Origin: Leptonemataceae bacterium
GTDB taxonomy: Bacteria > Spirochaetota > Leptospiria > Leptospirales > Leptonemataceae
DNA length: 64,000 bases
NCBI GenBank assembly: GCA_965227295.1
Contig: OZ245742.1
Coordinates: 2,496,001 to 2,560,000, forward strand
Reading direction: 5' to 3'
The notes beneath the pieces were generated by a model that made no database searches, had not been told where the DNA came from, and saw only the letters and a list, made by a program, of their open reading frames with translations. The translations under genes and the position numbers were made by a program. Of the stretch, positions 21,260 to 26,374 are shown in pieces. Positions within the stretch are counted from its first letter, which is position 1. Every line of letters begins with the position of its first letter.

Positions 21260-22186
21260 ATGGGATTTTTCAGCGACTCGGACAAATGGGGCAAGAAACG
21301 CGCCCGGGAAGTGGGGGACGAGCCGCCGTCTCTCGAAGACGAGGTGCGCGCGACACCGAAGAGCGACAAGAGTTCGGACAAGGCCTTTCCCCAGAACATC
21401 GAACTCTGGGACGACCTGGAAGCCGAGGCGCTGGAAGAGGATCTGCGCGGTTCCGCCCTGGGCGCGCCGCCGGCGGACGGTCAGGTCCGCATGTTCGGCA
21501 AGTTCAGCCGGGAAGACATTGAAAAACAGATGGAGTGGTCCGGCATTACGTCGGCGTTGAAAGAGAAGGGCTACGAAAACACGGAGATGGAGCTGAACTA
21601 TCTCTCGGAGCTGGACCAGCGCATCTTCGTGCGTCAGGACGAGCAGGTGCTGATCCACATTCGGCTGAAGCTCTCGCACTTTCGCTTTCGATTGCACCCG
21701 GAAACCCCGCGCATCAAACTGCTTTACATCGACTGGCTGCTCACCCAGCATCCGCACTCGCGAAACATCCGCGAGGAGCGGCTTTTTCCCGGTCAGGACC
21801 TGCCCGGCCTCGGCATTTTTCCGCAGCTAACCACATTTTTGCGAAACTTAGCGCTGGGCGTGGGCGCCCGGGGGGCCTTTAATATTCCCGAGTACTTTCA
21901 CGACGCGATGTTGTTTCATCGTCAGTTTAACTTTTACGATCCGTTGCGCGAGGCGTTCTTTCGCGGCATCATTCGGGATCTGCGTCGTTACGGGGCGCGG
22001 GAAATCTCCCATGCGTTCGGCGAGAACCGCATCCTCGATCAGAACGGAGACGCGCTGGACTGGAAGCCGGGCGAGATGATCTCGATTCTCTCTCCGGATC
22101 TCGCGGATCGCATCTGGTCGCCGGAGTACTACACGCGGGTGGTGCGCGAATTGAAACGGATTCGGTTTCAACTCGTGGAGAAGTGA
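21260..22186 (+). CDS. conserved deacetylase-associated protein (possible acetyltransferase)
   Basis: Long ORF with host-like codon usage; LLYIDWLLTQHP..LFPGQDLPGLG..PEYFH block. Function is inferred. Confidence 0.65.
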   Translation: MGFFSDSDKWGKKRAREVGDEPPSLEDEVRATPKSDKSSDKAFPQNIELWDDLEAEALEEDLRGSALGAPPADGQVRMFGKFSREDIEKQMEWSGITSALKEKGYENTEMELNYLSELDQRIFVRQDEQVLIHIRLKLSHFRFRLHPETPRIKLLYIDWLLTQHPHSRNIREERLFPGQDLPGLGIFPQLTTFLRNLALGVGARGAFNIPEYFHDAMLFHRQFNFYDPLREAFFRGIIRDLRRYGAREISHAFGENRILDQNGDALDWKPGEMISILSPDLADRIWSPEYYTRVVRELKRIRFQLVEK

Positions 22187-22205
22187 GGGCGGCGCGCGGG
22201 GAGTC

Positions 22206-22919
22206 GTGGCGGAGAAGATCTACAGAATTCCCACGGTGCCGCCCGGGGAGGATCATGCGCTCAGTGTCGTTCTTCTTTATATATCGGTGCCGGCGTTTAT
22301 TGCCACCGTTGCCCTGGCGAAAGCTTTTGGGACGGTGGTATTGTCGATTCTGCTGCCTCTGGCTATGGTCGGCATCCTGGTCTATCTTGCTGCGTATCAG
22401 GGATGGGTATCAAAGATCGCGCCGAAGAAGCTGAGTGCCGTTCGTGTAACCGACAGCGATGTTATCTTAGAGTTCGACAACGGCGCGCCGGACGAGCGCA
22501 TCGCCCTGGCTGATCTGCAGCACGTAGAACTGGACCTGCGTTCCGCTGCGGACGGCACTCTGACTCTCGACGCCGCCTCCGGAGAGATCAGCGTACACTC
22601 CGGCGATGCCGGCGTGCTCTGGTCCTTGCGTAAACATCTGGAGACTGAAATCTACGCGCGGAAGGTTACACCGCGGCCGCCGCCGATTGTGCCGGCTCCG
22701 GAGCCGCCGTCCCGGCCCCGGTCGCCGGCGGCGCAGCTCGGGCGTATGTCGCATACGCGGACGCGACGGGTGCAGAGTTCGGAAGCGGAAGCGGAAACGC
22801 AAAGCGTAGAGGAAGAAGTGTCGACCGAGAGCGTGGAGCCGCCCCGGCCATCGCTGGAACTGAAGCCGGAAGAAGCGGGTGAGGCCGAAGACGAAGCACA
22901 ACGCTGGCGGTCGATCTAA
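22206..22919 (+). CDS. RWRSI-tail membrane protein, paralog 1 (type A)
   Basis: MAEKIY start, two TM helices, LWSLRKHLETEI, LELKPE, ends QRWRSI. Confidence 0.8.
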   Translation: MAEKIYRIPTVPPGEDHALSVVLLYISVPAFIATVALAKAFGTVVLSILLPLAMVGILVYLAAYQGWVSKIAPKKLSAVRVTDSDVILEFDNGAPDERIALADLQHVELDLRSAADGTLTLDAASGEISVHSGDAGVLWSLRKHLETEIYARKVTPRPPPIVPAPEPPSRPRSPAAQLGRMSHTRTRRVQSSEAEAETQSVEEEVSTESVEPPRPSLELKPEEAGEAEDEAQRWRSI

Positions 22920-22922
22920 CAT

Positions 22923-23618
22923 ATGCCGAAGAGAACTTACATAATGCAGGCGTCGCCGCGCACACCCTTCGTCACAGGTCTTACCTCTGTGCTCGTCCTT
23001 GTCGCGGTCTCCTTGATGCTCTTTTTCGTATTGCTCGCCGTCTTTCCGAAGGCTGGTTTCCATGTGATCCTTCTGTTTCTCGCGCTCGGGATCCCCGGCT
23101 TGCGTTTCATAAAGAAAGTTGCGCCGCGGGCGCGAAATGCACCGACGAAGGATGCGCACACGGTTCAGCTAACGGAGGAAAGCTTGTTGTTCGAGTCCGG
23201 CACCACAAGGACGAAGGCGCAACTGGCACTCGATGAAATCCGCCGAACTGTCTTAAAAGTCTCGTCATCGAAATCCGGCAAGCTCAGCATCTACGCGCGC
23301 GGCCGGAACCTCGTCATTCGCGCGGCGGATCCCGCGGCGCTGGCCGAGTTGCACGCGGATCTCGAAGACGAAATTCGCAAACGCAAGTTCGCATCCGCCC
23401 ATCCTGCACAGTCGCATTCCGGCCCGAAAACGGCTCCGATCCCGCCCTCGCGACTGAGGTTGCGGACACAGGGGAGTGGAGTCGCGGAGCCGTCGACAGC
23501 CGGAGTGGGGGATGCTAATGCTGCAACAGAGAAAGTTAAAGAGGCTCTGAAGGCCGTGCACGAGGGAGGCGCAGCGGAGATCCAGGAAGACGAGCAGGGT
23601 CGCTGGCGGTCTATCTAA
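22923..23618 (+). CDS. RWRSI-tail membrane protein, paralog 2 (type B)
   Basis: Two TM helices, HTVQLTEE, RNLVIR, GPKTAPIPPSRL, ends GRWRSI. Confidence 0.8.
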   Translation: MPKRTYIMQASPRTPFVTGLTSVLVLVAVSLMLFFVLLAVFPKAGFHVILLFLALGIPGLRFIKKVAPRARNAPTKDAHTVQLTEESLLFESGTTRTKAQLALDEIRRTVLKVSSSKSGKLSIYARGRNLVIRAADPAALAELHADLEDEIRKRKFASAHPAQSHSGPKTAPIPPSRLRLRTQGSGVAEPSTAGVGDANAATEKVKEALKAVHEGGAAEIQEDEQGRWRSI

Positions 23619-24356
23619 ATGGCGGAGAAAACTTATAAAATCCGGGCGCCGATCGATTCGCAGCGAATCGGATTGATCGGCCCCGCGTTCTGGGCGCTGA
23701 TCTTGTTGCCGCTGGTGTTGACCGACGGCGGAGTTCTATCCGCGACCGTTTTTCTGGTGACGATTCCGGTGTTCATCGGCTTTGTCGTGTGGTTGTTTCA
23801 ATGGGCGCGCAAGGGATCGGGAGTGCGGGCCGTGCGATTAACAGACGATGAATTACACTTAGAGCGAGTCGCCCGCCGGCCGGTGCCGCCGTTTTCGCTG
23901 GATGATCTGCGCCTGGTCGAGCTGAAGATGGAAGCCGCAAACAGCGCGACCATTCGCATCGTCTTCACGAATCGTTGCCTGGAGATCGAATCCAACGACT
24001 CGGGTACGCTCTGGGCCCTGCGCAAACATCTGGAAAACGAGATCCAGGCCCGGCGCGCTTCCAGCCCGGCTTCGCCCGTTTCGGCGCCGCCCGTGAATCC
24101 CGGACCAGGCTTGCGACTTCGGCGCCGCACGCATGTGCGCCCGCGGTTGCGATCGACGCTCGGCGAGGCGCCGGAGGAATCGCAAGAGGCTTCGCAAGAA
24201 GATGTGAGTACGCACGAGGAATCGCGCGAAGATCATAACAAGCCGGAGCCGCCGCCCGCGCTGGAACTGAAACCGGAAGCCGTGTCCGAAGAACCGCCGC
24301 CTGTCGAGGAAGCGGACGAGACGGATGACGAAGAACAGCGCTGGCGGTCGATTTAA
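23619..24356 (+). CDS. RWRSI-tail membrane protein, paralog 3 (type A)
   Basis: MAEKTY start, two TM helices, LWALRKHLENEI, LELKPE, ends QRWRSI. Confidence 0.8.
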   Translation: MAEKTYKIRAPIDSQRIGLIGPAFWALILLPLVLTDGGVLSATVFLVTIPVFIGFVVWLFQWARKGSGVRAVRLTDDELHLERVARRPVPPFSLDDLRLVELKMEAANSATIRIVFTNRCLEIESNDSGTLWALRKHLENEIQARRASSPASPVSAPPVNPGPGLRLRRRTHVRPRLRSTLGEAPEESQEASQEDVSTHEESREDHNKPEPPPALELKPEAVSEEPPPVEEADETDDEEQRWRSI

Positions 24357-24375
24357 TTCGCAGCGCGCATAAATC

Positions 24376-25092
24376 ATGGCCGAAAAGATACACAACATAC
24401 CCGCGCTGCCGCGGCCCGAAGGCTTCGACTGGACCGAGATCGGCTGGCGTCTGATCGTAATTGCTGCGGCGGTGATGATCCTGCTTCTTTTTGCCGCGGT
24501 GGCGTTGTCCTACAGCCAAATCACTCTCGTCGGAATAATGATTTTTTTGGCAGTACGCTTTATACTCTATGTGATGGACAGCGAGGACAGAGCGTGGCCC
24601 GCCCCGGCCCAACCGACGCCCGCGCCGATTCATCTGCGCAAACAGGCAAGCCACACGGTTCGATTAACCGAAGATGAAATCATCTTTGAATACGGAGCGA
24701 ACGGCCGGAGCATGCGCCTGCGTCTCGACGACGTTCGTCGCGTGGGAAAAAACGTACGCTCCGTGGATGAGGCTAAGTTGATCATCCATGCCCGGCGCCG
24801 CAACCTGGTGATCCGTACGAATCAACCGCACATGCTCATGGATTTGTACGCACACCTGGAGGACGAGGTCCGGAAACGCAAACTGCCGACAACGCCGCGG
24901 GCGCGGCGGCGCGCGGGTCCGAAGACGGCTCCGATTCCACCTTCGCGATTGAAGCTACAGAGTGCGCCCGCGCAGAAGCCCGCGGAGGATGCCGGGGCGG
25001 CGAAAGAGAACGTCAAAGAAACCCTGAAGGCCGCGCACGAAAAGGCCGCCGATACCGAAGACGATGAACAAAGCCGCTGGCGTTCGATCTAA
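24376..25092 (+). CDS. RWRSI-tail membrane protein, paralog 4 (type B)
   Basis: MAEKIH start, two TM helices, HTVRLTED, RNLVIR, GPKTAPIPPSRL, ends SRWRSI. Confidence 0.8.
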   Translation: MAEKIHNIPALPRPEGFDWTEIGWRLIVIAAAVMILLLFAAVALSYSQITLVGIMIFLAVRFILYVMDSEDRAWPAPAQPTPAPIHLRKQASHTVRLTEDEIIFEYGANGRSMRLRLDDVRRVGKNVRSVDEAKLIIHARRRNLVIRTNQPHMLMDLYAHLEDEVRKRKLPTTPRARRRAGPKTAPIPPSRLKLQSAPAQKPAEDAGAAKENVKETLKAAHEKAADTEDDEQSRWRSI

Positions 25093-25728: not shown

Positions 25729-25886
25729 GGATGTACTCCTTGGAGTGTCAGGGGATATTCCGGAGAACCGGTCGACGGCGCGTGGCCGTCAGGGATTCGA
25801 CGGATGCGCCGAGAGTCCGATCGTACGAAAAACGCGGCAAGGCAAAAAATTTGCAGCGGCCCGAACATCTTACTGACCACGATTGC

Positions 25887-25917
25887 TTGACAGCTTTCCC
25901 GCGCACGGAGGCATACT
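25887..25917 (+). promoter_or_regulatory. sigma70-like promoter upstream of the tRNA-like RNA
   Basis: TTGACA (25887-92) and CATACT (25912-17). The 19-nt spacer is longer than optimal. Confidence 0.5.
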
Positions 25918-25926
25918 GCCCTGCTT

Positions 25927-26136
25927 CGTCCCGGGGTCAGGATGTTGCCGTCCGGCGGTGCCCGAGCCTGAGATCGGCGAGGGTATTTCGGCGAAGCGCA
26001 AAAAAATCTGGAGGTCAGTGGTTCGAATCCACTACGGGGCGCCAATCAGTCCCGTTAGCTCAGCCGGTTAGAGCGCCCGACTGTAACTCGGTAAGGCCCG
26101 CAGGAGCCTATCCTGCACCCCCGGAGGCGCGGGACG
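25927..26136 (+). ncRNA. circularly permuted tRNA-like RNA (YrlA/Y-RNA-like)
   Basis: The T-arm AGTGG-TTCGAAT-CCACT plus ACGGGGC-G-CCA (26017-26044) precedes GTCCCGT-TA-GCTC-AGCCGGTTA-GAGC-G-CCCGA-CTGTAAC-TCGG (26049-26091). The acceptor strands are complementary. The flanks GGGGTCAGGAT and ATCCTGCACCCC can pair. Confidence 0.75.
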
Positions 26137-26374
26137 TCTCAGCGCCGGGAACGGAACGCGGGCTGCGGCCTGCGGGAAATTCCCGGCGCACCGGAACATC
26201 GGCCAGCAGGTCGCGGATACCGATCCGTGCCGCCGCTTCGCAACCGCGCGCCGCCCGTATTCGGTCGGTGCAAGGTCCCGAGGCAGCGTGCGCGCATCTC
26301 AAGCAGACCTCCGCCGTTGCGAAGGGAGGCGTTCCGCGTCTTCATTTTCGTAACTTTTTTTGAGAAGTAGTTAG

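Follow-up and report, generated by a model that had tools for sequence, protein, structure and literature searches.

A circularly permuted tRNA mimic within a predicted structured RNA encoded upstream of slipin genes in Spirochaetota and Paenibacillaceae

In the red alga Cyanidioschyzon merolae, circularly permuted transfer RNA (tRNA) genes yield mature decoding tRNAs. For bacterial YrlA RNAs, Chen et al. (2014, PMC4201824) take as a criterion that a Ro60/TROVE gene lies no further than about 4 kb away on the same strand, and they tie a GNCGAAN0-1G motif near the 5' end to binding of Rsr. A tRNA associated with band 7 (b7a-tRNA), encoded beside a Band-7 protein and RtcB, was predicted by Burroughs and Aravind in 2016 (cited in Wang et al. 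2018, bioRxiv 10.1101/312249); in the account of Wang et al., YrlA itself occasionally adjoins a Band-7 protein, and the predictions of Band-7 tRNA-like RNAs lack experimental validation. Here we describe a candidate noncoding RNA of approximately 430 nucleotides (nt), predicted upstream of a slipin (SPFH/Band-7) gene in a Leptonemataceae bacterium (Spirochaetota). The window, that is the whole stretch analysed, comprises 64,000 nt (GenBank assembly GCA_965227295.1, contig OZ245742.1, positions 2,496,001 to 2,560,000), and coordinates given without further mark refer to it. The original prediction had flagged a circularly permuted tRNA-like module at 25927-26136 and had considered an orphan or variant Y RNA, a genuine permuted tRNA, or a new system. 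The last of these goes too far, as a Band-7-associated tRNA-like RNA had already been predicted, if the summary by Wang et al. is followed. That preprint was also the only result of a literature search combining slipin, SPFH or Band 7 with noncoding or tRNA-like RNA; a preprint on skipping-rope tRNA mimics contains no mention of SPFH, slipin, stomatin or Band 7.

Three structured parts of the RNA are conserved: a domain of hairpins on the 5' side, the permuted tRNA mimic, present once or twice, and an extended rod on the 3' side (Table 1). The flagged module is the middle domain of the predicted RNA, which would extend from about 25922 to 26350, and the flagged range covers approximately half of it. 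The letters and order of the module were as previously stated, the 3' half preceding the 5' half and the acceptor strands pairing at seven of seven positions with one G-U pair. ARAGORN detects no tRNA in the window as it stands. On script-made re-ordered joins it called tRNA-Tyr(gta) in five of five cases. At gathering thresholds, no Rfam family matched in the whole window. Permissive searches gave YrlA (RF02553) at 29.3 bits against a gathering threshold of 69, with only model positions 24-84 of 114, the tRNA-like core, aligned; and the tRNA model at 28.7 bits against 29, in a match that spans the D-arm and runs into the downstream hairpin. The folding energy does not exceed that of shuffled sequences (z = -1.73, not significant), and therefore the case for an RNA rests on its relatives.

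These show that the RNA co-occurs with slipin across genera and phyla and is conserved where the two are separated. Two covariance models were used. R1 describes the 3' rod and was seeded on three sequences of this spirochaete genus alone. R2 describes the tRNA-mimic module and was seeded on three congener modules; that of the genome studied (G000, a single contig) was kept outside the seed because the acceptor region, like the 5' domain, had come out misaligned in MAFFT. Slipin orthologues are present in 16 of 42 genomes of the family, and all 16 carry the RNA, 14 directly upstream of slipin and two unlinked from it. The latter two are other species of the same genus (G001, G002). In each of the other 14 genomes the R2 module is directly upstream of slipin on the same strand, and a motif scan adds further features of the RNA there. 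The flanks of R2 modules from six other genera have the same 5' hairpins and 3' rod, and the next gene is a slipin orthologue each time. In a 400-genome sample of Spirochaetota, 17 further genomes contain slipin, with an R2 match 300-400 nt upstream in 15; of the two remaining loci, one has no R2 match and the other lies on a contig that ends 310 nt upstream. A second phylum is represented by the 101 genomes in the family of one Paenibacillaceae genome. Slipin is found in 36 of them, and in 12 of the 14 loci fetched R1 matches immediately upstream of it. R2 is weak in these loci (5 of 14) and ARAGORN finds no tRNAs in any of the 14; by eye, the T-arm, acceptor hairpin, D-arm and anticodon arm follow in the same order. 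R1 finds the rod in 13 loci of other genera, and of the RNA's parts it is this one that was recovered in both phyla. The guess that the module is co-expressed with an SPFH protein thus proved, in the form of linkage, to be the key to the locus (14 of 16 family genomes, two phyla). Conversely, the module is not an orphan, the gene of its presumed partner starting 25 nt beyond the end of the RNA.

Some of the related loci have tRNA-like sequences or tRNA calls at or near the RNA. In G008 (L100, C517) a tRNA-like sequence of normal order is situated approximately 130 nt upstream of it, and in G202 (L145) three real tRNAs precede it. In G021 (L006/L094, C292:17181-17296) ARAGORN calls a 79-nt "tRNA-Arg(tct)" across part of the permuted module and the hairpins after it, probably in error and because of the slipin-linked RNA. 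With Rfam gathering thresholds, the only matches in 15 related slipin loci were three real tRNAs.

In G001 and G002 homology extends from a TTGAC box to a U-run over 500-560 nt, compared to approximately 430 nt in G000. Conserved within the genus are the 5' hairpin, the GGUGC...GUAU hairpin, the module or modules, the hairpin at 26100-26116, and a 3' domain of 220-260 nt, whose closing helix (18-20 base pairs, bp) differs in sequence between species with its pairing kept. The T, acceptor and D helices are fully paired in all four modules of the genus. The congener acceptor stems have other sequences, are capped by UUCG, GGCA or GCAA, and lack CCA. Covariation is seen in the 5-bp stem closing the module (CCUGA/UCAGG, CCUGG/CCAGG, UUUGA/UCAAA), in the Levitt pair 15-48 (G15-C48 in G000, A15-U48 in both congeners), and in the GGUGC...GUAU hairpin (GUGCCC/GGGUAU, GUGCUCCG/CGGAGUAU, GUGCCCCG/CGGGGUAU). 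The RNA of G001 and G002 adjoins unrelated genes, ends in a U-run and is followed by a convergent gene. Their slipin genes are located elsewhere, behind short leaders without the RNA. The unlinked RNAs retain all helices through compensatory changes, and that of G002 carries two modules in tandem. Persistence of the RNA and duplication of the module after unlinking from slipin therefore argue that the RNA itself has a role in trans. The junction of the tandem modules in G002 (L010 1533-1677, minus strand) is seen by Rfam as a tRNA of normal order (40.6 bits).

Covariation upstream of slipin homologues, which the original prediction had named as a check, is strong for both module and rod in alignments that were fitted to the models' structures. 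The rod alignment (14 rows, at least ten genera) has 89.3% of cells paired and compensatory changes in 38 of 46 pairs. None of 500 shuffles was as good, and sliding the partners by 1-3 columns reduced pairing to 32-41%. In the module alignment (26 rows) 96.1% of cells are paired, the acceptor helix reaching 100%, and 19 of 21 pairs show compensatory changes. None of 500 shuffles did as well on four of five measures and one of 500 did on the fifth; slid partners were paired in 30-48% of cells.

The linkage, together with the conservation of unlinked copies, is consistent with a noncoding RNA that would act as a partner of the adjacent slipin, as Y RNAs are partners of Ro60. We give this reading an even chance. 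Several observations weigh against it. The covariation counts are flattered by the fitted alignments, and related genomes and rows are not independent samples; the figures are thus generous, yet the signal is large. The anticodon-like triplet varies (GUA, UUU, UCU, GUU, GUC and others). The only RtcB gene of the genome (C1:1038085-1039191) lies between hydrolase genes, away from the RNA, and the locus thus lacks the RNA-repair setting of the published prediction. The likeness of the slipin model to vault proteins, described below, is one of architecture only, at 10-12% identity, and proves neither homology nor a cage. Finally, strict placement upstream and on the same strand has the look of a cis-acting leader, and the distance from rod to start codon, 25 nt in G000 and up to about 100 nt in others, leaves in G000 no room for a separate slipin promoter.

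The main rival explanation is indeed a cis-acting leader of the slipin mRNA, similar to an attenuator or riboswitch, where the module binds a tRNA-recognising protein or another signal and sets slipin expression. It would account for the placement, at the frequencies given above for the family, the phylum and Paenibacillaceae, and for the long helix with a U-run that ends so close to the start codon. However, a pure leader should decay once separated from its gene. The unlinked copies of G001 and G002, which have kept their structure in front of a convergent gene and in one case duplicated the module, therefore count against it. So does the end of the RNA outside the spirochaetes: a U-rich tail follows the rod in most spirochaete relatives inspected, whereas the Paenibacillaceae loci inspected have no clear U-run. 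We consider the leader possible but rather doubtful. The two roles are not exclusive and both could hold.

Another possibility is a genuine permuted tRNA gene, with a transcript that is cut and rejoined to form tRNA-Tyr, or that is cut in the acceptor loop to give a chargeable tRNA in two pieces. This would agree with the ARAGORN call on the re-ordered joins, with the GCCA after the acceptor 3' strand, and with the presence of the RtcB ligase in the genome. As described by Chen et al. (2014, PMC4201824), YrlA of M. smegmatis is cleaved by RNase P and gains CCA. On the other hand, the acceptors are capped by loops of 3-8 nt, in the relatives UUCG, GCAA, GAAA and similar, and CCA occurs in G000 only. 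A local anticodon-like arm (stem of 4-5 bp, 7-nt loop with U second) is present in only 13 of 36 modules, with a variable triplet; most of the others are closed by an upstream strand instead. The real tRNA-Tyr of G000 has a long variable arm and an unrelated sequence, and the module is situated inside a larger conserved RNA. A decodable permuted tRNA, as the original prediction had allowed, is thus very improbable.

Alternatively, the 3' end of one tRNA beside the 5' end of the next could be debris of a tandem tRNA array, or the region could be a chance open reading frame (ORF). G000 does contain dense tRNA arrays with spacers of 2-5 nt, and their junctions score approximately 29 bits with YrlA and 25-40 bits with R2, compared to 36-59 bits for R2 on the closed-acceptor modules of six other genera in the family set. 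Two other 29-bit YrlA matches in this genome, which has 86 tRNA genes, are junctions of clustered neighbours; therefore a sub-threshold YrlA match alone means little. An ORF of 210 amino acids (25731-26363) spans the region. However, the acceptor strands are paired at seven of seven positions in every module, with compensatory changes; none of the 86 tRNAs is a close match (best local scores 20/44 and 17/38); and the module keeps its place relative to slipin. No Pfam family matches the ORF, and no ORF of at least 70 amino acids (aa) spans the RNA in G001. We regard this explanation as refuted, with next to no chance of being right. Outside the window, at C1:4547528-4559530, about 40 tRNA genes form two dense, partly mirror-image arrays, beside a scattered set.

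The remaining alternative is an ordinary Y RNA of the YrlA type whose Ro60 gene is elsewhere or has been lost. The module does have the T, acceptor, D order of a YrlA-type permuted tRNA mimic, as the original prediction stated, and this is supported by covariation and by the YrlA matches, all below threshold, of the genus's four modules (26.1-35.8 bits). These scores are far below 69, and the match is confined to the tRNA-like part of the model. The motif GGCGAAG is indeed present at 25990-25996, 17 nt upstream of the module, as had been noted, but GNCGAAN0-1G occurs upstream of the module in only two of 34 related loci, and is thus not a feature of this RNA family. The absence of Ro60 nearby was confirmed at genome scale: the TROVE domain has no match in the genomes G000, G001 and G002, whereas positive controls matched. 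The slipin-linked RNA thus has no Ro60/TROVE gene within about 4 kb on its strand, and a Y RNA of this type, largely refuted here, is highly unlikely. A von Willebrand factor A (vWA) "Ro-like" protein was considered as a partner and rejected: a sequence comparison with PDB did not connect it to Ro60, and it was not found in G001 and G002. The absence of RtcB nearby likewise stands, the sole RtcB gene being about 1.48 Mb away among unrelated genes.

Two other loci contain tRNA-like RNAs. In G046 (L098, C1:121928-121996) a similar, closed-acceptor mimic lies directly upstream of a TROVE gene (ORF 1583-2932 of the locus), with no slipin. This is a canonical Ro60/YrlA pair, and both pairings exist within one bacterial family; its R2 match served as a positive control. 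In G000, at about 285.5-285.8 kb (L013 2472-2802, minus strand), two tandem RNAs have a tRNA body of normal order and a shared handle, GGCAUGCAAUCGGA.../...CGCACUCGCGUGCC. Their neighbours are a ThiF-like gene and a gene for a vWA protein of 599 aa, and their architecture is unrelated to that of the slipin-linked RNA.

The slipin gene encodes a protein with a clear Pfam Band_7 domain (E=2.2e-28, 99.9 bits against a cut-off of 23.6) and, by eye, no N-terminal hydrophobic segment. Slipins of this type abound: among 8,000 candidates scored, 7,869 homologues were found at E <= 1e-10. Homologues are named "slipin family protein" in the source, and proteins approximately 50% identical occur in Paenibacillus, Cohnella, Brevibacillus and Clostridia. 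PADLOC gave no match for this protein, and NCBIfam only a sub-threshold HflK match. In the AlphaFold2 model (predicted local distance difference test, pLDDT, 84.9), N-terminal beta-sheet repeats lead into an alpha/beta domain of the SPFH type, and the C-terminal part has long helices. The best matches of stomatin, prohibitin, HflK/C and QmcA are to residues ~110-353 (Z ~15-16), and the stomatin SPFH domain is superimposed with Z 16.1 and a root-mean-square deviation of 1.9 over 113 residues. Among solved chains, only major vault proteins align with residues 1-~353, through their residues 323-720 and with Z 10-12 over 233-262 aligned residues. We know of no function for slipins of this type.

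If the RNA is a partner of slipin, the following scheme may be proposed. One promoter would serve both RNA and slipin, some transcription continuing past the U-rich end of the rod. The predicted slipin multimer, stomatin- or vault-like, would be bound by the rod, the 5' domain or both. The tRNA-shaped module might present its elbow and acceptor stack to tRNA-recognising factors, candidates being RNase P, modification enzymes, and tRNA-directed nucleases or ligases, and could thereby act as a decoy, sensor or tether in a response to RNA damage or translation stress. A more ambitious and, in our opinion, unlikely version is that a soluble vault-like slipin and the tRNA-mimic RNA form a widespread bacterial ribonucleoprotein (RNP), a prokaryotic counterpart of vault and Ro particles, with the rod docking on the shell and exchangeable modules, one or two to each RNA and either with an anticodon arm or lacking it, that survey the tRNA pool for damage or buffer such damage without need of RtcB.

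Some elements of the RNA deserve comment. The two boxes of the promoter proposed upstream of it are present, but a sigma-70 promoter scan made no call on this site. In both congeners a TTGAC(A/G) box occupies the corresponding position upstream of the RNA, and G044, G024 and G012 have one approximately 445-595 nt before slipin. The outer closing stem of the original prediction (25933-43/26110-21) is complementary in G000; however, it has no counterpart in congeners, and the local hairpins 25940-53 and 26100-16 compete with it. A regular expression for the GGUGC...GUAU hairpin matches in 16 of 34 related loci. At the hairpin 26100-26116, G000 and G001 share an identical 25-nt block, which has three mismatches in G002, and this near-invariant hairpin offers no covariation. 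The core of the rod contains a GGAUACCG bulge and a UCUCAAGC...CCUCC strand. The terminator scan matched 26325-26343, followed by ATTTTCG. An alternative pairing between the 5' leader and the 3' end (CGUCCCG/CGGGACG in G000, CCCCGUG/CACGGGG in G001) was set aside, since 7-nt complements are expected by chance in a GC-rich RNA this long. RNase P RNA, 6S RNA and tmRNA are found elsewhere in the G000 genome, so they offer no competing identity.

Table 1. Predicted features of the slipin-linked RNA and the adjacent gene (window coordinates; MFE, minimum free energy).
Feature	Position	Strand	Basis
Promoter-like site: TTGACA 25887-92, 19-nt spacer, CATACT 25912-17	25887-25917	+	sequence; putative transcription start
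5' domain: helix 25922-30/25990-98 (holds GGCGAAG), hairpin 25940-53, hairpin GGUGCCC...GGGUAUU 25957-87	25922-25998	+	MFE folds
Permuted tRNA mimic: variable-loop strand, T-arm, acceptor hairpin, D-arm, anticodon-like arm	26007-26092	+	sequence, R2 46.6 bits, covariation
Variable-loop region TCTGG + AGGTC	26007-26011 + 26012-26016	+	sequence
T-arm AGTGG/TTCGAAT/CCACT	26017-26033	+	sequence
Acceptor hairpin, 8-nt loop GCCAAUCA	26034-26055	+	sequence
Acceptor 3' strand ACGGGGC, then G-CCA-ATCA	26034-26040, then 26041-26048	+	sequence
Acceptor 5' strand GTCCCGT, then TA (U8-A9)	26049-26055	+	sequence
D-arm GCTC/AGCCGGTTA/GAGC, GG of D-loop present	26058-26074	+	sequence
Anticodon-like arm CCCGA/CTGTAAC/TCGG, 7-nt loop CUGUAAC	26076-26091	+	sequence
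Hairpin GCAGGA/GCCUA/UCCUGC, nearly invariant within genus	26100-26116	+	sequence comparison
3' rod, 220 nt: 18-bp outer helix 26123-40/26326-43, core 26188-26325	26123-26343	+	folds of three congeners agree
U-rich tail AUUUUCG...UUUUUUU after outer helix, terminator-like	26344-26361	+	terminator scan
Slipin (SPFH/Band-7) gene, 370 aa	26375-27487	+	Pfam Band_7

The neighbourhood of slipin in G000 is not syntenic with G001 or G002. Upstream of the RNA are five consecutive ORFs of the same strand (21260-25092, plus strand; 231-308 aa) that belong to no Pfam family. Downstream, a DUF5131 gene (phage Gp37/Gp68-type; 27511-28242, minus strand) is convergent with slipin.

Standard searches do not easily recover this RNA. 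BLAST against 41 and 156 relatives found nothing outside the genus except tRNA pieces. R1 with strict filters on 151 genomes of the order found the genus only; judging by the later searches of individual loci, this reflects a loss of sensitivity. An exact-pattern scan gave 38 loci in genome contigs, approximately the number estimated by chance, two of them real and both in the same genus; 18 loci in metagenomes, none real; and no loci in viral sequences. Slipins across at least two phyla thus come with a large structured RNA that is below every Rfam threshold, and the case serves as a warning that permuted tRNA mimics escape tRNA finders and score under the Rfam YrlA threshold. If the RNA does bind slipin, it would represent a third class of bacterial tRNA-mimic RNP, besides tmRNA-SmpB and Ro-Y RNA, and would provide a testable handle on the role of soluble SPFH cages.

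As in the permuted tRNA genes of C. merolae, the 3' half precedes the 5' half and the acceptor strands are complementary. Unlike those genes, the acceptors of the relatives are capped by tetraloops and the unit forms part of a larger RNA. An analogy between vaults and SPFH proteins has been drawn in print before. Similarly to the major vault protein, to residues 323-720 of which it aligns over its whole length, the slipin model combines beta repeats with an SPFH domain and a long helix, and the protein has a genetic tie to a small structured RNA. However, vault RNAs are not tRNA-shaped, and the likeness is one of fold, known from a predicted model. With YrlA the RNA shares the order of T-arm, loop-closed acceptor-like stem and D-arm, the conserved tertiary positions of tRNA, and a location beside the presumed protein partner. 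It differs in having no Ro60 gene, no conserved GNCGAAN0-1G, no Ro-binding stem formed by the 5' and 3' ends and a sub-threshold score; it is approximately four times longer, has extra conserved domains, and its partner gene is slipin.

The closest likeness is to b7a-tRNA. The abstract of the 2016 study reportedly assigns to SPFH/Band-7 modules that include a new tRNA-like molecule the role of scaffolding cofactors in systems of RNA repair. In both cases the gene of a tRNA-like RNA adjoins an SPFH/Band-7 gene, and both are computational predictions. As described by Wang et al. (2018), b7a-tRNA has a strong likeness to an authentic tRNA and is encoded beside RtcB, whereas here the tRNA shape is permuted in every locus examined and constitutes only one domain of a 430-560 nt RNA located outside any RtcB RNA-repair operon. 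No Rfam family for b7a-tRNA emerged from the window and the 15 related loci. The RNA described here is a variant of this predicted, uncharacterised Band-7-associated kind, in a family that is absent from Rfam and widespread.

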